This document shows, one piece after another, positions 11,381 through 56,750 of a stretch of DNA of 64,000 bases; position 1 is the stretch's first letter; every line of letters begins with the position of its first letter. The translations under genes and the position numbers were made by a program. Under the pieces are notes generated by a model that was not told the origin of the DNA, made no database searches, and worked only from the letters and a program-made list of their open reading frames with translations. The stretch lies in the UHGV virus genome UHGV-0248979. One strand, 5' to 3'. This DNA comes from a virus.

Positions 11381-11437
11381 AAAAAAAAACGTGCTACTCC
11401 TACCCTCTAAGAGGGTAGGAGGTTACTTTATTTTTTT
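11381..11437. terminator. bidirectional rho-independent terminator
   Basis: CTCCTACCCTC-TAA-GAGGGTAGGAG hairpin with A9 upstream and T7 downstream; sits between convergent genes. Confidence 0.65.
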
Positions 11438-28277: not shown

Positions 28278-29192
28278 ATGGAAGAACTTACTAGACCGAC
28301 GGTATCCGATAAGCTTTACAGTAATCCGAGAACGTTAAACGTGATTACAACATCCAAATGTAATCTGGACTGTAGCTTCTGCGGCGGAGCCTATTACATG
28401 CATAGAGAGGATACAACCGCAGAAGTACAAAAGGAAAGTATTATCGAGGCGCTGGAAAATAACCCGACTATCACAAATATCCAATGGTCAGGGGGCGAAC
28501 CATTACTTGCCACGCGTAAAATTGATACCCTTATAGAAGAGATAAGGGAGAAGTATCCTCGTTGCGAACATTACCTGTATACCAATGGTTTAAAAATGCG
28601 TAAATCGCATCTACCGTTGTTAAAGGGTTTTGATAGTATCTTTTTTAGCATGGATGGATTCAAAGAATCAGAGCGTCCGTTCATGCGGATTATCGAAGAA
28701 AAACAATACGAGGTTTTGGAGACAATTTACGAATTGAAAAATATTCGTACTTGGGCGGTTTTGACACGCGAGCGTATTGGGGATAAACGTTGGTACGAAG
28801 ATATAATTGCGTTACATAACCACATTTACCATTATGGTTTTTGTGAGATGTCGCTGGTTTTGGACAAAAACATGCCAAAACCGTTATCTCCCGATCACGT
28901 TATGAACTTTATTTACGGGTATTTTAGAATTCAGGAGAATATAGAAAGACTGAATTCGTCCAATCGAAGTGAATGTGCGTTTACGCTAAATGCGTTATTT
29001 GATGAACCCTGTAACACATGTAGTCGTTGTTTTCGCATTGAGTCTGACGGTGCCCAGAACCAAGTAAAGAACGTTGAAATCGTAACGCAACACGGCTGTA
29101 GTGACTTGGCCAGAAAGGTTGGATTAGATGCTTACGACTATATACGTCGTGTGGTAGGGGCTAAGAATAGAGTCTCAGAAAAACTACGATAA
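28278..29192 (+). CDS. radical SAM enzyme 1
   Basis: CNLDCSFC (Cx3Cx2C) radical SAM cluster motif, GGEPLL SAM-binding motif, C-terminal CNTCSRC cysteines. Confidence 0.7.
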   Translation: MEELTRPTVSDKLYSNPRTLNVITTSKCNLDCSFCGGAYYMHREDTTAEVQKESIIEALENNPTITNIQWSGGEPLLATRKIDTLIEEIREKYPRCEHYLYTNGLKMRKSHLPLLKGFDSIFFSMDGFKESERPFMRIIEEKQYEVLETIYELKNIRTWAVLTRERIGDKRWYEDIIALHNHIYHYGFCEMSLVLDKNMPKPLSPDHVMNFIYGYFRIQENIERLNSSNRSECAFTLNALFDEPCNTCSRCFRIESDGAQNQVKNVEIVTQHGCSDLARKVGLDAYDYIRRVVGAKNRVSEKLR

Positions 29193-29250
29193 TTTTACAG
29201 AAAGTGAATTATAATGTGTCCTAGGGGGCACTAAACCAGTAGGTATTAAA

Positions 29251-29649
29251 ATGGCGATTGGTTTATCTTCTTTAAAGGCCCGGCTAGATAACATAGACTC
29301 TACTGCATTAAAAAATACAGGTGCGGTGCAGAACTATATTCGTGGTAAAGCCACTAATAATAGCGATCTGTTTGGAGGACAGCCGAGAAATCACTATGAC
29401 TGTGGGGGTAGCTGTAGCTGGACGTGCTCAAGTTGTTCGGGCGGCTGTACCGGCAACGCCTCCGGCGGCTGCGGTTCTTCCTGTTCAGCGAACTGTGTTT
29501 CAGGATGTAGTACAGGTTGCACAGGTTGTAGCAGTACCTGCTCAGGAGGGTGCACAGGTAATTGCTCGGGCGGTTGTTCAAGTAGTTGCACCGGAACATG
29601 TTCAGGTTCATGTCGAGGCGGATGTCAGCAATCGTGTACTGGAAGATAA
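29251..29649 (+). CDS. Cys/Ser/Gly-rich repeat protein 2 (putative radical SAM substrate)
   Basis: Core starts DCGGSCSWTCS like protein 1; leader with LKARLDNI motif. Confidence 0.55.
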   Translation: MAIGLSSLKARLDNIDSTALKNTGAVQNYIRGKATNNSDLFGGQPRNHYDCGGSCSWTCSSCSGGCTGNASGGCGSSCSANCVSGCSTGCTGCSSTCSGGCTGNCSGGCSSSCTGTCSGSCRGGCQQSCTGR

Positions 29650-29652
29650 GAA

Positions 29653-30319
29653 ATGATAAGTCTTAAAAACATACGCGACAGATTAGTAACGGCGGAGGGA
29701 TATATCACCACCGCTAATGCAAACAACTATATTGCAAACCAAGGAACGGTTTCCTCAACCAACAATCTCGCAGGATTACCTTTAAGTCATTATAATTGTA
29801 ATGGCGGATGTAGTTGGTCGTGCAGCGGTAGCTGTAGTAAGGGGGCGGGGGGGGGTAAGTAAGCCCTCTAGCGGTGGTTCTACGCCAACCCCTTCAAGAC
29901 CAACCTACGACAACAAAGCCGTTGTTTATGTTGAGTCTAAGCTACACGCTAAAGATACTGTTCGTATCAATTTCTCTACTGGGGCTGTCTTTATTCAATG
30001 CGTAACGTTAACCGGTAGAGAGAAACCGATAAGGGTCTTTAAATCGTTACTGTCTGGAAAGTCCTACGCCTACCCTCAAGTTGCAATGGGTAATGGTATC
30101 ACTGTTAATTTTACAGACGCGGCTAGTTTTAAGATAGACTCTATCGGTAATGCATCTTCTGCTTCTATCTCATTAGAAGTATTAAGTAATTCCGGCGGAA
30201 GCATGGCGATTAAGCAGCAACCGAGTAAATCAAACGGCTTTACTGCAGAATTTGAAGTTACCGGCAGGCAATGGCGTGGCGGGTTCTATACCTTGAACGT
30301 CAGATTGACCGTAAAATAA
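29653..30319 (+). CDS. Cys-motif protein 3 with C-terminal domain, reading frame interrupted at a G9 tract
   Basis: ORF 29653..29862 (leader KNIRDRL, core NCNGGCSWSCSGSCS) stops 2 codons after G9 tract 29847..29855; the +1 frame continues to 30319 without its own plausible start; one fewer G fuses them. Confidence 0.4.
29847..29855 (+). repeat. G9 homopolymer tract (preceded by GGGGGC)
   Basis: Direct read of sequence; coincides with frame break. Confidence 0.9.
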
Positions 30320-30331
30320 TTGGAGTAATCA

Positions 30332-31219
30332 ATGAAAAACGATTTGCATTTAGCCTATAAAACAATTTTCAACCACCCACTTCATATTTCTTCCCCCGAT
30401 TCAATACGCGCTCATTTGGAAGATAAAGTTCGTTTGTTAACCCAGTTACCTGGCGAATGGCCCAAAGTGCGTGGTCGTTTTTTTACCGATCGCAATAACT
30501 ATTCAGTAGAAAACACTTTTAAAATACGCGATCTGACAGCAGAAAGCGTAGTGGTGTTTACCGGTGATTCAGATTTACGCGGTAAATTGGTTGACGGTAA
30601 ATATTTCTTTAGTGACGGTATTCTGAATAATTCTGTAGATTTGGAATTGTTCTTTACGCCATTTAAAGAGTTGAATGCGAAGCCTGTAGCACGACGTTGG
30701 TGGTCTCCAGACTATCTTGGTTCATTCCCGTACTTTTATGCCCTGGTTCCTGTAGAAACAAAAAACTATGTTGATACTGAACCGTATATTGAAATAGAAG
30801 GTTACGAGGAACTTGGCATCAACTGTTTAGCAGATCTGATGGCGTACAGTTACAAATTTATGTGGGATCGTGAACGTTCAGTATGGGTTGCCCTTACAGA
30901 TGAACATGAAATCACAAAACGTATTCGTAAACCATGGATGCAGCATTTAATTCAAACACGTATTGGTGAACATCCGTCATCGGAAGCAGATTTAGCGAAA
31001 CTTGTTAGTTTCTTAATGACGAAAGTCACGTTAACTGATGAAGAAAAAGCGGCAGTGTCGGCGGTATTGGAACGTAACGTAACGTTAGCGGATCTAGAAC
31101 GTTTAAACGTGCGTTATAAAGACCTTAATCGTATTATTGAGGCTTACAATTCACCGTTTGTATTAAAACCTGGAGTTAACGCTTACGACGATCCTTTGTT
31201 ATCCATTGGCTATATTTAA
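30332..31219 (+). CDS. hypothetical protein (295 aa) within radical SAM cluster
   Basis: GGAG RBS 7 nt upstream; no recognisable motif. Confidence 0.55.
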   Translation: MKNDLHLAYKTIFNHPLHISSPDSIRAHLEDKVRLLTQLPGEWPKVRGRFFTDRNNYSVENTFKIRDLTAESVVVFTGDSDLRGKLVDGKYFFSDGILNNSVDLELFFTPFKELNAKPVARRWWSPDYLGSFPYFYALVPVETKNYVDTEPYIEIEGYEELGINCLADLMAYSYKFMWDRERSVWVALTDEHEITKRIRKPWMQHLIQTRIGEHPSSEADLAKLVSFLMTKVTLTDEEKAAVSAVLERNVTLADLERLNVRYKDLNRIIEAYNSPFVLKPGVNAYDDPLLSIGYI

Positions 31220-31226
31220 AAAATAG

Positions 31227-32165
31227 ATGGACTCACCTGCAATGACAACCGACGTAGAGCCAAGGTTATCGAATCGTTTATACAATAAACCCACCGTATT
31301 GTCCGTAGTTGCTACATCCAAATGTAATCTGGACTGTAGCTTCTGCGGCGGAGCCTATTACATGCATCGTGAAGATTCTCCGCGAGAGTTTCAACGTGAA
31401 CGAATTTTGAAAGCGTTGGCGTCTAACCCAACCATTACTGAAATTCAGTGGACTGGCGGTGAACCGCTACTGGCAACTCGAAAGATTGAGGCGTTTGTCG
31501 ACGAATTAAAAACGATCCGTCCTGAACTCAAACACCAGATGTTCACGAACGGTTTAAAAATGCGTAAATCGCATCTACCGTTGTTAAAACAATTCGATGG
31601 TATATATGTTAGCATCGATGGGTTTAATCTTTCTGAACGGCCTTTTAAGCGCTTTATTGATGATAATTGTCATGAAGCGTTAGAAGTAATTTACAGCTTG
31701 AATAATGTTAACACCTGGGCTGTTGTTACGAGGGAGAATTTATCCAATAAAAGATGGCATGAAGATATCATTCAATTACATACTGCTATCTATCATTACG
31801 GTTTTCGTTCCATGTCCTTATTACTAGATAAAAACATGCCAAAACCGTTATCTCCCGATCACGTTATGAACTTTATTTACGGGTATTTTAGAATTCAGGA
31901 GAATATAGAAAGATTAAACGTTCTAAATTCTAGAGACTGCGGTTTTATTGTAAACAGATTCTTCGATCATGCTTGTAATGTCTGTAGCGAAAGTCTCAGG
32001 ATAGACGCGGACGGGGAAGAAAACCAACTTAAAAATGTACCAATAACTACAAAAGCAGGGTGTAACCAACTAGCCTCCTCAATAGGTGTAGAAGCTTACG
32101 AGTACATTCGTCGTGTAGTGATGGCAGAGCGTAATAGAGGGGCGGAAAATGAGTCAAGAAAATAG
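31227..32165 (+). CDS. radical SAM enzyme 2 (paralog of enzyme 1)
   Basis: CNLDCSFCGG motif; three blocks of identical nucleotide sequence shared with 28278..29192. Confidence 0.7.
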   Translation: MDSPAMTTDVEPRLSNRLYNKPTVLSVVATSKCNLDCSFCGGAYYMHREDSPREFQRERILKALASNPTITEIQWTGGEPLLATRKIEAFVDELKTIRPELKHQMFTNGLKMRKSHLPLLKQFDGIYVSIDGFNLSERPFKRFIDDNCHEALEVIYSLNNVNTWAVVTRENLSNKRWHEDIIQLHTAIYHYGFRSMSLLLDKNMPKPLSPDHVMNFIYGYFRIQENIERLNVLNSRDCGFIVNRFFDHACNVCSESLRIDADGEENQLKNVPITTKAGCNQLASSIGVEAYEYIRRVVMAERNRGAENESRK

Positions 32166-35290: not shown

Positions 35291-35320
35291 ATCGGGGGAG
35301 GTTACCACCCCCCCCCGAAT
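35291..35320 (-). terminator. putative hairpin/terminator containing C9 tract
   Basis: TCGGGGG...CCCCCGA pairing around a 9-nt homopolymer, followed on minus strand by TATTTCTTT. Confidence 0.3.
35308..35316. repeat. C9 homopolymer tract (intergenic)
   Basis: Direct read. Confidence 0.9.
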
Positions 35321-47399: not shown

Positions 47400-49520
47400 T
47401 TAAATAACTACCCAGCTTTTACCATCGGAACCAATCTGCATTAGCGTAATACTTTCACTGGTATCAATGGGTTTGGCAAGACCTTCTGTCCCACTCTTTG
47501 GAGTGATGAGAACGTTTGAATTTTCCGGTTTAACGGTGATCTTACCAGCCTTATTTGCCACGATCTGAATATTTCTGCCCACGCTATATTCTAGATCAGG
47601 AATAGTAAGTTGGCCGCCACGGTTGGTGGGTGGGAAATACACATAAGACGACACATCTTCCTCAGATAACACTATGCTACCAGAATCACGATTGACCGAG
47701 ATCTCAAACTTAGAAATATCGATATCATAGGCAGTAACTTTCGTAATATCCGTCAGAACCAATTCGTTCAAATCGGTCTTAGCTGGACTGTTCGCCAGAT
47801 CAAATGGAGTACCATTCGTACCGTCCAGCACAGGTGTGACTGTGGTTTTATTGGCACCAGGATAAATGATTTCAAGCGTATGCCAGTTATTATCGTACGC
47901 ACCAAAAGTTCCTAATTTCGCATTTTGCTTTTTATGATGCATCAGATTAAGATTCGTAGCGTCGGTCTGTAAGAAAAAAGACATTAGGTACGGGTTCGTC
48001 TCAGCCACACCAGCGTCAGCAAATGTAGTACCAGAAGGTAGGTCGGACGCGGAAATACGCCAATAAAGTCCTAATCCGAAACGATCTGCTGCTAAATCAC
48101 CTTTTAGTCTAAAAGTAACGGTCAGACGTCCACCGTAACGTATCATGTCCGCAGCAGATGTCATTGACTTAGTTACATTCCAAGGTTTCATCTTTACAGC
48201 CTTTCTTAATTCGACGAAATGCCCGTTTCCATCCTCAGAATCTTGCACGGTTACGTTACAATCAACGATATTGTTCCAACCTTGCCCTTTCAGGGAACCA
48301 TCCCCACGACGTCCGTTATAACCCACAGACTCTACTAATGGGGTATAGCTTCTTACCACATTCTTATTGTCTTTGGAGCTCTTAGTGTCGTTCTTCGTCA
48401 GGAACATTGCACCAATCGCTGTTCTTGATAATATCTCGGCAGCTATTCTCTCTGAGATAATACCGCGTCGTGCCCAAGAACTGAAATGGCTATTCCTTGT
48501 TTCAGACGTCCAGTTTTTAACAGTACGGGAGGCAGCACCGTAATAGGCCGCACCAGTGATATCAGGATCGTCAGTGGGATCATTAGTCGGTACACGTTGG
48601 CCATTATCGTCGTACATGAATGGAACAAAAAAGATATTTTTTTGTTCATTGTTACGATAATTACCGTATACGGTTTCATATTGGGCAGGATATTTTTCCT
48701 TCCAATAATAGGTAGTGTCCCCGCAGATCCATGGTACTTCGGCGGTGTCGTACTCGGGCATCTGAGAGAGATGGTCAGAGAGATCAGTTCGGAAACGCTC
48801 TACCATTGCGTTAAATAACGCTGGTTGTTGTGCGTATTGTACTTTAGTCAGATCATACTCTCCCTGCATCCACACTACAGCCAAGAGTTTATTTTTAGGA
48901 TTAACTTCTAGAGCTTTTTTGGTCCGGCTAACTAAATCTTTATAAAGCGGTTTCTCCACCCCCCATAGCATTGACGACTCAGTGGCTCCTGTGGCTTCAT
49001 CGAAGGTACCTTCTGCACCACCCGTGAAAGCAGAACCGCCGCGTGCGCAGGGTACTAGTAAGATACCGGCGTTCTTAGGAATATACGGGAGAAGACGCTT
49101 CGCGATATGTAGACCTTGACCCACACATCCGTATTCACCTTTGCTCAAATTGGCATTGGGATGCGAGTATTTGGACATATCTTGCACGTCGTGCAGACAG
49201 TGATCCGCTGGAATGACGTCGTTATATTTACAATCAGCCCCATTAGGCGTTACCTTCGCACGGCGCGCCATCTGTTTAATTCGCGGATCGGGAGCGTCCA
49301 ACGTCGCCGGTAGAGGCAACCCTTCACCATAACTCATCGCATTAGATTGCCCGGCTATAGGAATCACGAAGTAATACTCCGGCTCCGTCGTGCCCTGAAG
49401 TTTTGCAATATCAATTTTATATTCTTTTTCTTCCTTAGAAAGAAGAACTAACGCACCTTTGAGATCGCCAGAGAAATTGTCGAGTTCATGGATACGTTTC
49501 TTTCCAATTGGCTGACTCAT
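47400..49520 (-). CDS. tail spike/fiber protein with SASA/SGNH-type carbohydrate esterase-like domain
   Basis: N-terminal 40 aa paralogous to the 1479-aa fiber N-terminus; IAGQSNAMSYGEG motif typical of sialate O-acetylesterase-like esterases; GGAGAG RBS. Confidence 0.6.
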   Translation of the reverse strand: MSQPIGKKRIHELDNFSGDLKGALVLLSKEEKEYKIDIAKLQGTTEPEYYFVIPIAGQSNAMSYGEGLPLPATLDAPDPRIKQMARRAKVTPNGADCKYNDVIPADHCLHDVQDMSKYSHPNANLSKGEYGCVGQGLHIAKRLLPYIPKNAGILLVPCARGGSAFTGGAEGTFDEATGATESSMLWGVEKPLYKDLVSRTKKALEVNPKNKLLAVVWMQGEYDLTKVQYAQQPALFNAMVERFRTDLSDHLSQMPEYDTAEVPWICGDTTYYWKEKYPAQYETVYGNYRNNEQKNIFFVPFMYDDNGQRVPTNDPTDDPDITGAAYYGAASRTVKNWTSETRNSHFSSWARRGIISERIAAEILSRTAIGAMFLTKNDTKSSKDNKNVVRSYTPLVESVGYNGRRGDGSLKGQGWNNIVDCNVTVQDSEDGNGHFVELRKAVKMKPWNVTKSMTSAADMIRYGGRLTVTFRLKGDLAADRFGLGLYWRISASDLPSGTTFADAGVAETNPYLMSFFLQTDATNLNLMHHKKQNAKLGTFGAYDNNWHTLEIIYPGANKTTVTPVLDGTNGTPFDLANSPAKTDLNELVLTDITKVTAYDIDISKFEISVNRDSGSIVLSEEDVSSYVYFPPTNRGGQLTIPDLEYSVGRNIQIVANKAGKITVKPENSNVLITPKSGTEGLAKPIDTSESITLMQIGSDGKSWVVI

Positions 49521-49523
49521 CTA

Positions 49524-50036
49524 CTACTCTCCAAAAGTTAAGATTTTATTGTCAAACGTCAACACGACAGAATCATCACCGATGCCACACGGTGTTTCAT
49601 CTGGGCCGAAAACCACCACGGAGAACTGTCCTTTATAAGCGATGGAATTCGGAGCGATGCTAAGCGTTACCGCGTCTTTACCTACCGTGAACGACTGGTC
49701 GGTTAAATCGTCGGTTTGTAAGTTAGCACCACAAACGGCATTGACGGATTCGATAAGATCGTGTGCATTAAACCCTTCACCTCTTACTTTTACCAGAATA
49801 GGTTGTTGGTTTAACCACCGCTCTGCGGTTAAACGGTTGTAGTAGATTTGCAACGTTCTGTTTCCAGGACGTTTAATCTTTACAATGGCAGTGGAGTCAC
49901 GATCCATTTCATCACTGGTTTTTACGTCACTGACTTCAACCTCGTTCTCTTGCAAGTCAAGTTGGAGGTCATGGTTAACCAGTGAAATAACCATGTTAAG
50001 TGAAGTTAGTGATAAATCTGGTGTGAATTTTTCCAC
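49524..50036 (-). CDS. fiber-associated small protein, family B (GTG start)
   Basis: AGGAGG RBS then GTG; paralog of 56128..56688; immediately upstream of tail spike gene. Confidence 0.5.
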   Translation of the reverse strand: MEKFTPDLSLTSLNMVISLVNHDLQLDLQENEVEVSDVKTSDEMDRDSTAIVKIKRPGNRTLQIYYNRLTAERWLNQQPILVKVRGEGFNAHDLIESVNAVCGANLQTDDLTDQSFTVGKDAVTLSIAPNSIAYKGQFSVVVFGPDETPCGIGDDSVVLTFDNKILTFGE

Positions 50037-50090: not shown

Positions 50091-50100
50091 CCCCCCCCCC
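50091..50100. repeat. C10 homopolymer tract (intergenic)
   Basis: Direct read. Confidence 0.9.
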
Positions 50101-50134: not shown

Positions 50135-50642
50135 TTAGCTAATTCTCAAATCACGCAGTGCGCCTGTCGATTTCATCACGTTTTGGAACGCAGCGCTGAT
50201 GTTATTAGTCCAGTAATAATGCTGTCCGTTAATAACCTGCTGATAGGCCAGCGCGCAGGTGTTACCACCTAAATTTACGGTAATGTTAGAGGCTCTGCCT
50301 CCTTGTAAGTAAACCGCTAAAGTAGGCTTTGCGTTGGCAACTATCGTCGTTAACTGTAACTCAATACCTACTAAAGTTCCCACCCCGCAGTTACCCGCGT
50401 TTTGAATGGTTCCCTGATTTTTCTGGTTTAACGGCCAGCTTGGTCCTACTGCGCCCCATTTCTTACCTAAAGAATCGCTATATGCAGCGGTTGCAATTTT
50501 ACAGCCCATAGATCGTCCCACCATTTGACTCATCATAAAAGGTCTACCCAATCCTAATTTACTACCAGCAGCGCTCATCCATTGTTCGCCCGTTTCGTTC
50601 TTGGCCGAAGAACCGACCCACGAACCGGTTACCCCCCCCCAT
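50135..50642 (-). CDS. family C small protein, N-terminus interrupted by G9 tract
   Basis: ORF track gives 50135..50578; upstream frame encodes GVTGSWVGSSAKNETGEQW matching paralog 50896..51441 N-terminus, but ATG at 50642 is out of frame across C9 tract 50632..50640. Confidence 0.45.
50632..50640. repeat. C9 homopolymer tract (G9 in gene sense) immediately after a start codon
   Basis: Direct read; paralog has G5 at the equivalent position. Confidence 0.9.
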
Positions 50643-50654
50643 CGCGATCTCCTG

Positions 50655-50885
50655 TTAAGATTTTCTACATGTTATTGAATCGAAAGCACCACGCCCAACC
50701 CAACGCCAATTATAATGATGATCAGCTTTATAAAGTGTGTATCTGCCCTGCTTTTTTACGTCGAAAATATTGATCGTAGTCTCTTCATTACCCAGCTTAG
50801 CTGTGCCGTAACATACAGGTTCGGGTAGTTGTTGACATCCACTTACTGTAAGCAATGCGAAACCCAGTAAAACTTTTCTTAACAT
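50655..50885 (-). CDS. small lipoprotein (76 aa)
   Basis: MLRKVLLGFALLTVSGC signal with lipobox-like VSGC; AAGGA RBS; embedded in receptor-binding module. Confidence 0.55.
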   Translation of the reverse strand: MLRKVLLGFALLTVSGCQQLPEPVCYGTAKLGNEETTINIFDVKKQGRYTLYKADHHYNWRWVGRGAFDSITCRKS

Positions 50886-50895
50886 CTTTCTGTCC

Positions 50896-51441
50896 TTAGA
50901 CTACACTTATTGAAATTGTTGCACCGTTCTGATTAAATAACCAGTTGGTTGCCGTCTTAGCCTCATAGCGCCGGACGCCGTTACTGTAGGAGTACGGTAG
51001 AAAAGTAATCTTCGTTCCGTTAAACGAAAGCGTAATATTCTGATTTGGTCCATTGGTTAGGGCCATGTAGATAATACCAGTATTTTGTACTTGGCTAAGA
51101 TGTGTGACGCTACAACCCAAGATCGAACCTGACACCGAACCGGCCGCATTTTGTGTTTGCACACGATTCGATACTGTAGAACCAGCACCCGTTGTTGTAG
51201 AGTTGTTCGAATACCCCCCATACGTATTTGTAATAGGAACCCACTGCGTGTTCGTAGCCTGCACCAAAACAACATAGGTTGATCGGCCTACAACGAGTTT
51301 AAGATCCTCTACGCTACGCCCGACCATCTGCGACATGTTAAATGGCGTGCTCAGTTTAAGCTTATTACCTGCCACACTCATCCACTCCTGACCGGTTACT
51401 GCCTTTGCTGAGCTTCCAACCCAGCCGGATGCTACCCCCAT
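50896..51441 (-). CDS. family C small protein (181 aa)
   Basis: GGAGGA RBS; paralog of 50135 gene. Confidence 0.55.
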   Translation of the reverse strand: MGVASGWVGSSAKAVTGQEWMSVAGNKLKLSTPFNMSQMVGRSVEDLKLVVGRSTYVVLVQATNTQWVPITNTYGGYSNNSTTTGAGSTVSNRVQTQNAAGSVSGSILGCSVTHLSQVQNTGIIYMALTNGPNQNITLSFNGTKITFLPYSYSNGVRRYEAKTATNWLFNQNGATISISVV

Positions 51442-51450
51442 AAATCCTCC

Positions 51451-51478
51451 AAACTAAAATAGGGGGATTACTCCCCCT
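51451..51478 (-). terminator. rho-independent terminator
   Basis: AGGGGGA-TTAC-TCCCCCT hairpin plus ATTTTAGTTT on minus strand right after fiber gene stop. Confidence 0.5.
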
Positions 51479-51482
51479 ATCT

Positions 51483-54400
51483 TTAATTCCCCTTGAGTTC
51501 TTTAAGCTCTTGGCGAAGAGTTTTCATGCCTTCTACTAACAACGCAATAACACCATTGTAATTTAGACGTAAACGTTTTTCGCCTGAAATGGCATCGTCG
51601 TCCTCGGACACAAGTTCAGGTAACGCTTCTAATGCGTCCTGAGCAATTAGACCTACAGAAGTCTGCCAACCGTCATCAGGATGCTGAATTTCGTACAAAT
51701 AACCGGTTAGTAACTCTAACCGATCCAAAGCTTTATCCAGCTTCACCAGATTACGTTTGTTACGACGGTCAGAACGAATCTGTACGTCGTTAAACGAACC
51801 GTTACCGTTGCCAGTAACGTTATGTCCAAAGTTTACTTGGCCGTTAGAATTATTAAAAGACAACGGGCGTAATCCGTTCCAGGAACCCGCTGCGGCTTGT
51901 CCGGCGTCGGTTACTAAGAAATAGGTATTGGCACCGTCGTTACGTAAAATAAAACCGTAGGTACCGTAAGCGATTCGAAAATCAGGGTATTTAGTGGCCA
52001 ATTTACCATTAACGGTTAAATCACCGCCTACAGTACCGCCCCCTGACGGTAACGCGCCCACTTCCGCAGCAGTTGGCTTGTTTCTCGTATTGTAAGCACG
52101 ACGCCAGCCTGGTGAGTATCCATCGCCGTTAAATACGTAGATAAACTCCGCATTAGTGAGTGCTCCGCCGACGCTCGTCGTTGTGGCGGTCGTTATACGG
52201 ATCGTGTAGTTGTTTGTGCTGTTGCCGTTACTAATGACTTCTATAACGGCCCCAGCTAACGGAATGACACCACAACCCGTCTCGCTGTGAGGTATGGACG
52301 CACTGGCGGCATAAGCCCACGCACAGCGAGCAACCCACGATCTTGTGGTAAATGCGCCGTTATTTTTCAATAACGTCACTAGCTGTGCTGTAGTTATTGC
52401 ACCGCCATTAGCGCCAGTTTCTAACCAACCACTAGGTGATGCCGGACAACCTATTTCGGCTGGCCCTAACGCTATATTTCTAGTGCCATCAAACGCAATA
52501 CCATTGATGGTTCTTGCGGTTTGCAACTTTGTTGCCGTGGCTGCGTTTCCGGTGGTCGACTGATTCCCTGTTTGGTTTACTCCAGGTAAACTGATGTCTT
52601 TAGTACCATCAAAAGCTACGCCACCTATATTTCGAGCAGTCTGTAGCTTAGTCGCTGTCGCCGCATTCCCCGTAGTCGATTGGTTACCGGTTTGGTTTAC
52701 ACCAGGAAGATTAACGTCTTTTGTCCCATCGAACACCACACCGCCGATCTTACGTGCGGTTTGTAACTTAGTAGCGGTCGCTGCATTACCTGTCGTATTC
52801 TGGTTGCCTTGCTGGTTAACGCCCGGTAAATTGATATCACCTGTACCGTCAAAGCTAACGCCTCCGATCCTGCGAGCGGTTTTCAGTTTCGTCGCGGTAG
52901 CGGCGTTGCCGGTAGTATCCTGATTACCTGTGGCATTTACACCAGGAATGCTATCACGGGCAGTATAAACTTGTGCCCAATCTGACCACGGCGCATCAGC
53001 AGTATCACGTCGACTACGAATATAAACGGGTGCGTGCGCACCGCTCGTCCCCGACCATCCGATTAACAGTTCCCCTTCGCCTAGCGCAGCAGAACCGCCC
53101 AAATGCAGTAAGTTACCATAAGCGGTTGGATAACCGTTATTGTAAACTTCGTACATCTGAATACCGGGTGTACCTTTGTTTGATCCAGTCAGTGCAGTAA
53201 CACGTCCACGTCCTACCAACGTGTTGATATTGATGTCTCTAGACCCATCAAATTTCACACCGTTGATGTTTCGAGCCGTTTGTAATTTGGTTGCGGTTCC
53301 CGCGTTCCCAGAGGTGTTTTGATTACCCTGTTGGTTTACACCAGGGAGGCTAATGTCTCCGCTACCGTCGAAACTTACACCGCCGATTAAACGGGCTGTT
53401 TTCAGTTTCGTTGCCGTAGCAGCATTGCCTGTTAACTCACCTGATAACCCTTTTGCAAAGGTCTGTTTTTCTGCCCACGTATGCGCTGCATTCAATACGG
53501 GCATCTGGCGGCTAGTAATAGTACGTTTACCCTTTTCACCAGCGACGCGAACAGCAAAGAAGCGATAGTTAGCAGTAGACACTGTACCACGCCAGACCAA
53601 CATACTCCGGCCAGTACCGGTGTCCTCCGACGCCCCTACAAGAATAGTAACCAAGTTACCGTCGATAACACCCCAATCCATTCCCGCAGGAATGTTTTTC
53701 ATGGTATTCAATGGTGTACTTATCATCTGGCCAGGAACGAAGTCGAAGGTTTGCCAGTCTAACGGATCTACCTTAGCAGCAACCCCACCGATCCCTAAAG
53801 CCAACGGGAGTGAATAGGATGTGAAAATCTCTCGCCATTCGCTCCAGGCATTTCCTGTACGAATTCGTTGGAACTTGCGACCTTTCGAAGTTGCGCCTGT
53901 ACCGTATGTGGTATAATTTTGTTCAACACCTGAACCGTCTAAGCGTAAGGTAACTTCGCAAACGCCTAGCAAGGTTGCGCCAGCAGAGTCTGTTAACGGA
54001 CCGTCTGTAGCCTCGCCGGTAACACTAAAGCGACCCGGTTTAGTTAAGTCGTTAAAGCTACCCTTATAGTAGGCACCGTCTACCTGATACCCAACCTGAA
54101 TCCAATCTTCCCACTGCGGATTAGACGAATCCCAAGTCGCAGTCAAACCACGGACATACATCGTACCACGACGAGTGGTGTAACGTTGTAAACGTCCATA
54201 AAGACCGCCTTCCATGACTTCTAATACGCCTTGCGCATTACCGCCCTCTTCAGGATAATGTCTGTCGAACACCGCTAACGAACTGGACGAGTTACGCCAG
54301 TTACCCATGTGCTCAGCGCCGCCTAAGGAGTTCAGATCGATCGATGTAGATAACGGGCGTACACCTGTAGTTACCATTCTCCACGGTGACCACGGGCCAT

Positions 54401-55922
54401 TAGTTCCGTTCCACGCGGCTGACAACATGCGGTTGTACACGTTACCATTACGGCAGGTAAAACGTTGCGCTCCACTGTAGTTGCCCGCTTTATACACTTC
54501 TAGATAACCTACCGCACCGTCTTCCGGGAAGTGTTTTGCTATTGATGCGTTTGTTGATGTCGACTTGGACCATGTTCCTGTGTAATTGGCATCTGGAGCA
54601 AATGTGTTAATATCAGCATCTGCGGGCATTTCACCACGGAAACGCAGATAGGTATCAGGAGATAGACCAATATTGCGAGCAAAGGTTTCTTTATTGGGGA
54701 TATCAGCACCGTTAGAGTTTTTCTGTAACGCAGAGTTCGCTTTATCTACAGTGGCTTTTAATCCCAAGAAATTGATGATATCCGCAGTTGTCCCTTTTGC
54801 TAACAAGGTTCTGGCGGTTTCTGTAAAGTCAGTTAACCCGACTTTATTAGTGCCAGTGAAATAAGGGAGCTTGTTTGCTGCGGTTGTGACTGCGGCAATA
54901 GCAGTAAGTAGTGGACTGATAGGTTGCTTCTGTGCAAGTTTCTCAGTAATCGTTGTTGCGAAGTTAGGGTCATTACCTAACGCCGTAGCTAATTCCGCTA
55001 AGGTATCTAACGTCTCAGGTGAAGAACCAACCAATTCCGCGATAGCAGCACGCACCCAGGCCGTTGTGGAGATGCTCGTGTCGTTCGAGTCCTTTGGGGG
55101 CGTTGGTGATGTCGGGTTACCCGTAAAATTCGGCGAATGTTTATCGGCTTTTAACTGTAATTCGTCGTTCAGCTGTTTAACCGTGGACGGTGTGGCAGCC
55201 TCCGTCACGGATTCGCTAGTCAGGGTATTGTTAAGTTTAACGATACCTTTACCGGTCGTACTAGCGTCAACTAAACCCTGTGCAGCGATTTTCTCCGCAC
55301 GCAGAGCGGCTGACTCCGAGCGTGTAGCTGCGCCTTCTGAGCTTTCTTTATCTTTCGTAACCTGCGCAGCAACCTTCTCCACCGCGCCCTTACTGGCCTC
55401 AATTGAAGCCGCAGTATTTGCGATACTGGTAGCGGTCTGTTGAACCTGTCCGGCCCGTTGCGTAACCGTTTCTGCTTTCTTAGTTACATCAGCCGCTACA
55501 GCTGTCACAGATTGTTCGCTTGCGGCGACAGCTTGAGCCTTCTCATTTACTGATTGTGAAACAGTATCTACGGCAGTTTTTGCTGCTAAAACTTCAGCGT
55601 GTTTTTTGTTAACCTCCGCAGTTTTAGTGGCGACGGTTCCCGCTTGCTCATTAACTGTGGAAGCTAAAGTGGTGGTCTGTTGCTTCGCTGTTTCTGCTAA
55701 ATCTTTAGCTTTCGTAGCTTCTGTTGCGGACTGTTGTGATTTGGCCGCAGCCGTTTGTGCATCAGCAACCGCACTTCTGACGGTGTCAATGTCCGCAACG
55801 ATCTCGCGGACTGGTAACTTATAATCTTTTTCGTCTTTCGAAAAAAGTAAAACGCCTTCACCGATATCCCCGGTGTACGGATGTAAGTCGTGTAAACGTA
55901 TTTTCTTTACCGCTTTAGCCAT
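51483..55922 (-). CDS. side tail fiber protein with C-terminal intramolecular chaperone (peptidase S74-like) domain
   Basis: Ala/Thr-rich coiled-coil N-terminal region, six 40-aa repeats GNAATATKLQTAR.IGGV.FDG, C-terminus SDRRNKRN...VGLIAQDALEALPELVSED matching the endosialidase/T5-type chaperone domain. Confidence 0.75.
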   Translation of the reverse strand: MAKAVKKIRLHDLHPYTGDIGEGVLLFSKDEKDYKLPVREIVADIDTVRSAVADAQTAAAKSQQSATEATKAKDLAETAKQQTTTLASTVNEQAGTVATKTAEVNKKHAEVLAAKTAVDTVSQSVNEKAQAVAASEQSVTAVAADVTKKAETVTQRAGQVQQTATSIANTAASIEASKGAVEKVAAQVTKDKESSEGAATRSESAALRAEKIAAQGLVDASTTGKGIVKLNNTLTSESVTEAATPSTVKQLNDELQLKADKHSPNFTGNPTSPTPPKDSNDTSISTTAWVRAAIAELVGSSPETLDTLAELATALGNDPNFATTITEKLAQKQPISPLLTAIAAVTTAANKLPYFTGTNKVGLTDFTETARTLLAKGTTADIINFLGLKATVDKANSALQKNSNGADIPNKETFARNIGLSPDTYLRFRGEMPADADINTFAPDANYTGTWSKSTSTNASIAKHFPEDGAVGYLEVYKAGNYSGAQRFTCRNGNVYNRMLSAAWNGTNGPWSPWRMVTTGVRPLSTSIDLNSLGGAEHMGNWRNSSSSLAVFDRHYPEEGGNAQGVLEVMEGGLYGRLQRYTTRRGTMYVRGLTATWDSSNPQWEDWIQVGYQVDGAYYKGSFNDLTKPGRFSVTGEATDGPLTDSAGATLLGVCEVTLRLDGSGVEQNYTTYGTGATSKGRKFQRIRTGNAWSEWREIFTSYSLPLALGIGGVAAKVDPLDWQTFDFVPGQMISTPLNTMKNIPAGMDWGVIDGNLVTILVGASEDTGTGRSMLVWRGTVSTANYRFFAVRVAGEKGKRTITSRQMPVLNAAHTWAEKQTFAKGLSGELTGNAATATKLKTARLIGGVSFDGSGDISLPGVNQQGNQNTSGNAGTATKLQTARNINGVKFDGSRDININTLVGRGRVTALTGSNKGTPGIQMYEVYNNGYPTAYGNLLHLGGSAALGEGELLIGWSGTSGAHAPVYIRSRRDTADAPWSDWAQVYTARDSIPGVNATGNQDTTGNAATATKLKTARRIGGVSFDGTGDINLPGVNQQGNQNTTGNAATATKLQTARKIGGVVFDGTKDVNLPGVNQTGNQSTTGNAATATKLQTARNIGGVAFDGTKDISLPGVNQTGNQSTTGNAATATKLQTARTINGIAFDGTRNIALGPAEIGCPASPSGWLETGANGGAITTAQLVTLLKNNGAFTTRSWVARCAWAYAASASIPHSETGCGVIPLAGAVIEVISNGNSTNNYTIRITTATTTSVGGALTNAEFIYVFNGDGYSPGWRRAYNTRNKPTAAEVGALPSGGGTVGGDLTVNGKLATKYPDFRIAYGTYGFILRNDGANTYFLVTDAGQAAAGSWNGLRPLSFNNSNGQVNFGHNVTGNGNGSFNDVQIRSDRRNKRNLVKLDKALDRLELLTGYLYEIQHPDDGWQTSVGLIAQDALEALPELVSEDDDAISGEKRLRLNYNGVIALLVEGMKTLRQELKELKGN
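52480..53450 (-). repeat. in-frame tandem repeats (about 120 nt unit, six copies in two blocks) inside the tail fiber gene
   Basis: Repeated peptide NQ.GNQ.T.GNAATATKLQTAR.I.GV.FDG..DI.LPGV; explains the spurious plus-strand ORFs here. Confidence 0.7.
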
Positions 55923-56703: not shown

Positions 56704-56750
56704 CAAAAAAAAAATAAAAAACATCTACCGCCCATAGAATCGGGCGGTAG
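56704..56750 (-). terminator. rho-independent terminator
   Basis: CTACCGCCC-ATAGAAT-CGGGCGGTAG hairpin plus T-tract on minus strand. Confidence 0.6.

Follow-up and report, generated by a model that had tools for sequence, protein, structure and literature searches.

Hypermutable polyG tracts have been described in the receptor-binding protein genes of Campylobacter phages (Sorensen et al. 2021, Cell Rep 35:109214), as that work is represented in PMC10579305, PMC10877375 and PMC12823448. Phage adhesins are also known from the structure of the S16 gp37–gp38 complex, in which an N-terminal three-helix bundle holds the adhesin and conserved tryptophans at the helix apices insert into gp37 (PMC6851490; see also PMC12032242). 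Our study concerns adhesin B, a Gp38_N-family gene at positions 50135..50642 on the minus strand of a 64 kb stretch of UHGV virus genome UHGV-0248979; the whole stretch is referred to here as the window, and all coordinates are window positions. The gene opens on a polyG tract, and we consider it likely that slipped-strand changes in the length of this tract switch full-length adhesin B ON (G8, G11) or OFF (G9, G10).

The minus-strand sequence at the start of adhesin B reads AACAGGAGATCGCGATGGGGGGGGGTAACCGG. A Shine–Dalgarno sequence, AGGAG (50649..50653, minus strand), stands 6 nt before the ATG start codon (50640..50642, minus strand), and the flank AACAGGAGATCGCGAT was invariant in 29/29 near-identical loci. 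The tract itself (50632..50640, minus strand) holds nine G in the window, the G of the ATG included. An earlier, sequence-only reading of this locus had described an ATG at 50642 followed by nine G and out of frame with the gene; the frame was correct, but the count was not, as the nine G come directly after AT. An open +1 frame extends from 50671 to a stop at 50135, with the translation (W)GGVTGSWVGSSAKNETGEQWMSAAGSK..., and the first start codon in it is the ATG at 50578. The ATG at 50642 is out of frame with this 165-codon open reading frame (ORF), whose first 19 codons match the N-terminus of a paralog, adhesin A (50896..51441, minus strand). That match, already proposed from the sequence upstream of the Met at 50578, was borne out, with 67 % identity between adhesins A and B over their first 43 residues (E 1e-16), beyond which the two proteins are unrelated. 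The observation that the paralog carries five G at the same place was also accurate, as adhesin A starts ATGGGGGTA (G5).

Frames and products were worked out for tracts of G5–G12. In the G9 state, the ATG opens an out-of-frame ORF of 26 codons (50562..50642, minus strand; MGGGNRFVGRFFGQERNGRTMDERCW*, with the stop ending at 50562), and the longest ORF that can be called for the gene itself (50135..50578, minus strand) encodes 147 aa from Met22, with half of the Gp38_N domain absent. One G fewer (G8) gives a protein of 168 aa beginning MGGV..., two more (G11) give 169 aa beginning MGGGV..., and G10 gives MGGG*, four codons and an immediate TAA. The out-of-frame ORF is not conserved, comprising 13 codons in the related genome L047 and four with G10. 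No significant mRNA structure was found around the start tract (z +0.4 to +0.9). Two hallmarks of bacterial contingency loci are present here: a homopolymer of about eight or more within an ORF or its expression signals, in this case G9 at codons 1–4, and a length that sets the ON or OFF frame of an otherwise intact gene.

The length of the start tract was found to vary among near-identical genomes, a set of 23 distinct assemblies with 98.2–99.9 % identity to the window. The tract was G8 in ten of these, G9 in three, G10 in seven and G11 in three, a count that is skewed towards G8 by the inclusion of a look-up with the G8 protein. Sampling independent of tract state, by look-up through the neighbouring Cor-like and DUF7941 proteins, yielded 13 assemblies with one G8, three G9, six G10 and three G11 tracts, which corresponds to four in-frame (ON) and nine out-of-frame (OFF) genomes. 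Gene calls on 24 contigs were similarly divided (ON 8/24, OFF 16/24), and the lengths called for adhesin B were 124, 147, 168, 169 or 187 aa, depending on the tract. The proposal that G8 would restore the full-length protein was confirmed by P0009 (MGGVTGSW..., 168 aa), which is exactly the predicted protein; 21 contigs, the longest of 225,663 bp, encode it within the same order of genes. The JGI contig L058 encodes the window's own 147-aa product; over 1,492 nt it aligns to the window without a mismatch, and the sole differences are in the lengths of two G tracts, with G10 rather than G9 at the start and G11 rather than G10 in an intergenic tract.

A 1.9-kb alignment resolved three haplotypes without a single internal single-nucleotide polymorphism (SNP), and these hold three, three and four tract lengths, with G8, G9 and G10 all present in the window's own haplotype. 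Because haplotypes with zero SNPs hold three to four lengths each, the start tract changes length recurrently and far more rapidly than point substitutions build up. Length polymorphism on identical backgrounds, recurring across haplotypes, is a further hallmark of contingency loci. With G8–G11 among near-identical genomes, the tract is hypervariable, and G9 is one of its alleles and not an invariant length. Adhesin A showed no such variation in 26/26 genomes, at either its G5 start or an internal G6 run.

Homologous loci in relatives were located with a degenerate DNA pattern anchored on the W-V-G-S-S codons; a DNA pattern with exact flanks gave no match among viral contigs, the flanks of the relatives being different. 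Across ~38 homologous loci the start is ATGGGGATA (G4), ATGGGGGTA (G5) or ATGGCGGT, and a start run of G8 or more is confined to the jumbo-phage lineage close to the window. IMGVR_UViG_3300045988_078609 has G8, in frame (MGGVASGW). SKEP01000003.1 (L047), which is ~87 % identical to the window at the locus, has G9 and is out of frame, as is the window. Both G9 (SKEP01000003.1, L047) and G8 (L007/L039) are present in this diverged lineage. The window's phage itself has no entry in the GenBank phage collection searched.

A sequencing or assembly error, in which the true tract of the window would be G8 and G9 a homopolymer miscall, was considered because homopolymers of eight or more are error-prone and G8 is the commonest length overall (10/23 records, in the count biased by the G8-protein look-up). 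We regard this as very improbable. G9 recurs in three further assemblies of the same phage (ERZ28644647, ERZ28646393 and ERZ28647640), one of which aligns to the window over 4,231 nt with 5 mismatches and 0 gaps. The lengths span four values, G8–G11, instead of lying one either side of a single value, while the G5 and G6 runs of the same contigs are stable. Isolate assemblies also give out-of-frame calls (P0016 and P0021); the 187-aa call P0016 reads through a G9 tract, and the tract lengths for P0016, P0020 and P0021 were deduced from their protein sequences alone. A miscall would at most account for the window, and not for four lengths across 23 assemblies.

The restored product is an adhesin by several measures. 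Restored adhesin B matches Pfam PF21721 (Gp38_N) with 67.1 bits against a cut-off of 25 (E 1.3e-18), residues 3–41 corresponding to profile positions 2–40 of 40, and this domain is followed by a beta-rich C-terminal domain; the match for adhesin A has an E value of 2.4e-20. Both proteins match phrog_1121, "tail fiber adhesin" (adhesin B E 6.6e-44, adhesin A E 7e-53). By tblastn, homologues were detected in 406 phage records, and in each the alignment began at residue 3 or 4. Escherichia phage CMS-2020a (63 %) has one of the closest, as do Stx phages such as P13374, whose homologue is annotated "receptor recognizing protein Gp38". In an AlphaFold2 (AF2) model, residues 45–168 of adhesin B are mostly beta with a predicted local distance difference test (pLDDT) score of 87–95, and the N-terminal 43 residues are of low confidence (pLDDT 33–54), so that the model does not confirm N-terminal helices. 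The modelled C-terminal domain is a putative receptor-binding domain. A PDB sequence search with restored adhesin B returned zero matches, and a Foldseek search of the AF2 model against the PDB gave none that was significant and none to 6F45 (best E 0.03, TM ≤0.37). No glycine-rich motifs were found in the sequence of the C-terminal domain. Adhesins A and B are Gp38_N-family adhesins, yet not gp38 of the S16/T2 type, because the C-terminal domain is without glycine-rich motifs and has no significant PDB match.

Selection on adhesin B was evident from comparison of five jumbo-phage orthologs, in which the pairwise ratio of non-synonymous to synonymous substitution (dN/dS) was 0.08–0.22, with a value of 0.16 between two G9 genomes. 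The 19 codons upstream of Met22 differ between L047 and L039 by six synonymous differences (Sd) and one non-synonymous difference (Nd). Secondary stops or indels were seen in 0/13 out-of-frame loci, and the 498-nt ORF in OFF loci shows mostly 0 nt differences. Since the ORFs of the 13 OFF loci are intact and mostly without nucleotide differences, the out-of-frame states are recent and, by the haplotype pattern, recurrent.

The sequence-only reading had suggested that tract length would switch between a full-length and an N-terminally truncated product. Variation at the population level, G8–G11, was upheld, whereas the truncated product as the alternative state was not. A functional adhesin starting at Met 50578 in the OFF state is extremely improbable, even though the 147-aa ORF is intact and the 26-codon ORF of the G9 state ends 13 nt past ATG 50578, which would make termination–reinitiation conceivable; with G10, the upstream ORF stops 60 nt before this ATG. 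No Shine–Dalgarno sequence was found for ATG 50578. The 21 residues before Met22, all of which would be lost, are the most conserved part of the family, with 13 invariant residues that include W8 and W21, even against adhesin A, and Met22 lies inside the Gp38_N domain and is invariant across all homologues. W8 and W21 align with the anchor tryptophans of S16 gp38 (PMC6851490), and the third anchor position in adhesin B is occupied by F35/M36, not Trp. The product from Met 50578 would lack profile positions 1–20 of the 40-position Gp38_N domain and the tryptophans at two of the three putative anchor positions. Because this product would lose half of Gp38_N and two tryptophans, and because ATG 50578 has no Shine–Dalgarno sequence, G9 and G10 most likely represent the lack of a functional adhesin B (OFF) and not a working truncated protein.

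Programmed recoding would offer another way of reading the G9 state: a fixed proportion of full-length protein would be made from G9, with either RNA polymerase slipping on the C9 template or tRNA-Gly slipping by +1 on GGG GGG G, and the gene would never really be OFF. Long A/T homopolymers are known sites of RNA-polymerase slippage. A +1 slip on the G run would yield exactly MGGV..., and G9 is common to two diverged genomes. However, the length varies from G8 to G11 on identical backgrounds; relatives have G5, G4, ATGGCGG or no run; and G10 gives an immediate TAA. There is no hungry or stop codon in the A site and no significant or conserved downstream structure, a small hairpin (GGUCGG..UCGGCC) being disrupted in L039. 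A conserved slippery site with an out-of-frame arrangement, usually accompanied by a stimulatory element, characterizes programmed frameshifts and was not what was found here, and we judge recoding to be quite improbable.

The start tract is one of several long G runs in the window. From the composition of the window, ~0.05 G9 and ~0.05 C9 runs would be expected in 64 kb, compared with four observed runs of 9–10, and matches to GGGGGGGG on both strands numbered 9 against 0.58 expected in shuffles (0/100 shuffles reached 9). The lengths of G/C runs are bimodal, with 34 of length 5, three of length 6, none of 7–8 and four of 9–10. In the long runs, G is always on the local sense strand, and all four of the G9/G10 tracts vary in length among near-identical genomes. 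Two are intergenic, on the minus strand. The G10 tract at 50091..50100 forms the 5' arm of a significant hairpin (z −3.5) ~55 nt upstream of the GTG of the next gene; it is G9–G12 in near-identical genomes, G7–G10 in relatives and unexpanded in L040. The G9 tract at 35308..35316 is the 5' arm of another significant hairpin, of the form ATTCG9...CCCCCGAT (z −2.5) and is G9–G11 in near-identical genomes. In relatives these two tracts are G7–G11 or unexpanded, and the partner C run of each of the two hairpins stays at five. The fourth tract, G9 at 29847..29855 on the plus strand, lies two codons before the stop of a gene for a 69-aa Cys-rich peptide. With G9 or G10 the peptide stops there, whereas G8 or G11 fuses it to a 150-aa ORF; among near-identical genomes the tract is G10 in four and G11 in one (L083, ERZ28656559), where a 222-aa fusion is called.

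Further observations were made around these tracts. Intergenic hairpins of the form ATCG(n)...CCCC(C)GAT occur 40–60 nt upstream of virion-gene starts (for example 50091–50100 and 35308–35316, L006:90 and L041:1797), with the 5' G arm expanded to 9–12 and the 3' C arm at 4–6, and the set of expanded hairpins differs from one related phage to another. Upstream of the fibre gene, relatives have G10 and the window has GGGGGAGG. After the tract at 29847–29855, GGTAAGTAA gives stops in 2/3 frames, and the 150-aa ORF (29863–30319) is absent from relatives L043–L045 and decayed in L042. This tract was also considered as a second interrupted gene, which was rejected, because the ORF of relatives has the same C-terminus and stop (...RGAGGNK*). 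A9/A10 runs are present at 1634–1643, 11381–11389 and 56705–56714, three in comparison with ~0.4 expected from composition.

Within the 706-aa SASA/DUF6645 gene, a G6 run at 48959..48964 (minus strand) is G7 in one genome, L074 (ERZ28647640), where it splits the gene into 193 + 533 aa; this would be a second, putative receptor-interaction gene affected by G-run slippage. Over 182 kb of aligned near-identical sequence, indels were located in sense-strand G runs and in one A6 run, a tally that sets aside the divergent segment 28415–28860 and a handful of singleton or compensating indels. That G5/G6 runs are stable and G8–G12 runs fluid, with G on the sense strand in every case, poses a question of mechanism for replication or repair in the jumbo phage.

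A neutral origin is a serious rival to an adaptive switch. Phage replication would expand any sense-strand G run beyond ~6 to 9–12, the adhesin B start (ancestrally ATGGGGGTA) would merely have been caught, and a dispensable adhesin B would be decaying as an incipient pseudogene, with switching that has no selected function. Several of our results count against the adaptive reading and in the direction of this one. The ON:OFF ratio of ~1:2 is the value expected from neutral drift of tract length without selection on frame. The same expansion, from G5 to G9–12, is seen at three other sites, including intergenic hairpin arms with a partner C run of 4–5, so the start tract could be a mutational by-product and not a selected switch; length distributions are alike at coding (G8–11) and intergenic (G9–12) sites, and the slip from G6 to G7 breaks the SASA gene in one genome. 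As regards the proposed switch as a whole, every tract length was read from the consensus of an assembly (short-read metagenomes or isolates), and OFF alleles may be expressed leakily through RNA-polymerase or ribosome slippage on G9/G10. Against the neutral reading, dN/dS is as low as 0.08–0.22, and is low between two G9 genomes too, the 13 OFF loci carry no secondary stop or indel, the long tract has been kept in two diverged lineages, and all four long tracts lie at gene edges, where a change of length is tolerated or informative, and none lies mid-gene. Retained function is supported by purifying selection, by the lack of secondary lesions and by the location of all long runs at gene edges. 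We consider the neutral explanation unlikely, and genotypic switching holds under either reading.

The switch that we favour would operate as follows. The hypermutable homopolymer would gain or lose single G residues by slipped-strand mispairing during phage DNA replication. As the run sits between Met1 and the first conserved residue, Val4, in-frame lengths would add just one or two glycines and leave the adhesin complete. G9 and G10 would send the ribosome into a dead end of 26 or four codons, with no functional adhesin B, and a phage population would be a mix of adhesin B ON and OFF genotypes. Adhesin A, with its stable G5 start, the same attachment domain and a different binding domain, would always be expressed and would compete with adhesin B for one fibre tip. 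The fibres of ON virions would be tipped with both adhesins and those of OFF virions with A alone, a difference that may alter receptor or host use. A broader scheme can be entertained, although we think it unlikely, in which the polyG tracts form a multi-locus 'phasome': they would switch adhesin B, optionally fuse the radical-SAM-associated Cys-rich peptide to the 150-aa domain and tune hairpins upstream of virion genes, such that a burst releases combinatorially different virions as bet-hedging selected in the gut, enabled by a phage replisome that expands G runs.

The order fibre, adhesin A, cor, adhesin B is the same in at least 21 contigs, and the adhesin genes lie directly downstream of the tail-fibre gene (51483..55922, minus strand; 1479 aa), which encodes Phage_fiber_2 and Gp34_trimer domains and a C-terminal Peptidase_S74 chaperone and is the presumed carrier of adhesins A and B. 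This gene was called at 1479 aa in most near-identical genomes and at 1439 aa in some (L048, L074), probably through copy-number variation of internal ~40-aa repeats (GNQ.T.GNAATATKLQTAR...). A terminator-like hairpin of the form GGGGG-loop-CCCCC (51459..51480, minus strand), 3' of the fibre gene, is the unexpanded form of the hairpin type that bears the intergenic G tracts. Adhesin A comprises 181 aa and combines its Gp38_N domain with a different C-terminal domain. Between adhesins A and B is a 76-aa gene (50655..50885, minus strand; phrog_1119 E 1e-25) with the lipoprotein signal LLTVSGC, predicted to encode a Cor-like superinfection-exclusion lipoprotein; from its annotation, it may be a receptor-masking partner of one adhesin. 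The Cor-like gene is missing from the related jumbo phages L006, L007, L008 and L024, in which the first adhesin is a T2-like glycine-rich gp38. Downstream of the intergenic G10 tract are the gene for a DUF7941 virion structural protein (49524..50036, minus strand) and then the tailspike-like SASA/DUF6645 gene (47400–49520).

Contigs of ~222–226 kb from this phage group were present in isolate assemblies of Salmonella enterica (Chester, Kentucky, Enteritidis), Shigella flexneri and E. coli, which suggests a jumbo phage that is carried in cultured isolates or co-purified with them. The same group was found in many metagenome assemblies resembling human-gut samples. Elsewhere in the window, a cluster resembling those for ribosomally synthesized and post-translationally modified peptides (28278–32165) contains the Cys-rich peptide genes 29251–29649 (132 aa) and 29653–29862 (69 aa), whose products share a leader and the motif HY[DN]C[GN]GGCSW[ST]CS. 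Radical-SAM genes (28278–29192 and 31227–32165) flank the two peptides, and relatives have a further one called downstream. Within the first radical-SAM gene, 28415–28860 diverges strongly from ten otherwise near-identical genomes, with many compensating indels, which points to a recombined patch whose source could be the paralogous radical-SAM gene 31227–32165.

If adhesin B is switched as proposed, the consequences would be practical as well as conceptual. Campylobacter itself is full of polyG switches, and an equivalent arrangement in a phage of Salmonella, Shigella and E. coli would mean that the strategy is not peculiar to that host. The system would be a tractable model, since the tools exist: the genetics of E. 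coli, panels of receptor knock-outs and simple recoding to lock the gene ON or OFF. Receptor-prediction tools would read adhesin B inconsistently, the length of the gene call depending on the tract, and the use of such phages in therapy would mean stocks with a heterogeneous and drifting host range.

The locus resembles gp38 of the T-even phages T2, T6 and S16 (PDB 6F45) in its Gp38_N attachment domain (E 1e-18), its conserved, putatively anchoring Trp positions and its position directly downstream of the fibre gene. It differs in that the C-terminal domain of adhesin B has neither glycine-rich motifs nor a polyglycine sandwich. The presumed carrier fibre is no gp37 homologue either, and a Peptidase_S74 chaperone forms its end. 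In T4-like phages, for example PEi20, gp38 is also found in tandem. To our knowledge, no T-even gp38 is controlled by a homopolymer. The invertible G/C segments of Mu and P1 and the diversity-generating retroelement of Bordetella phage BPP-1 similarly provide alternative receptor-binding tips in a population, as would be the case here, but those work by site-specific inversion or reverse-transcriptase mutagenesis, and neither an invertase nor a reverse transcriptase is involved at this locus. In lambda PaPa, a one-base frameshift is said to silence the accessory tail-fibre gene stf and to affect adsorption. Both cases would share the silencing of an adhesion gene by a single-base frameshift, although the stf frameshift is a fixed laboratory mutation and not a recurrently variable tract.

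The closest parallels are homopolymeric. As in the bacterial contingency loci of Campylobacter, Neisseria, Haemophilus and Bordetella (PMC1891110, PMC3025981), a G tract of eight or more at the 5' end of an ORF gives frame-dependent ON and OFF states, many alleles occur on clonal backgrounds and the ORF stays intact despite frequent OFF states, whereas the tract here belongs to a virus genome replicated by the phage's own machinery. A literature search for polyG or other homopolymer switches in the fibre genes of enterobacterial or jumbo phages found nothing relevant. So far as the available accounts of the Campylobacter phages describe them, G tracts in phage receptor-binding genes vary in length with ON/OFF phase-variable expression, several polyG tracts occur per genome, as do four G9/G10 tracts in the 64-kb window, and the phage population is phenotypically mixed, as the genomes analysed here would imply for adhesin B. 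The same accounts present an experimentally demonstrated case, whereas ours is one of comparative genomics, and they concern a different lineage and host group: the present phage is a ~225-kb enterobacterial jumbo phage, with Erwinia and Salmonella jumbo phages, not Campylobacter phages, as its nearest DNA relatives in the phage collection. Also unlike what those accounts describe, the tract here directly follows the start codon, and the gene encodes a small gp38-type fibre-cap adhesin beside a constitutive paralog. In the searchable literature, Campylobacter phages are the one phage precedent for polyG-controlled receptor-binding proteins, to which the present case adds an enterobacterial jumbo phage.

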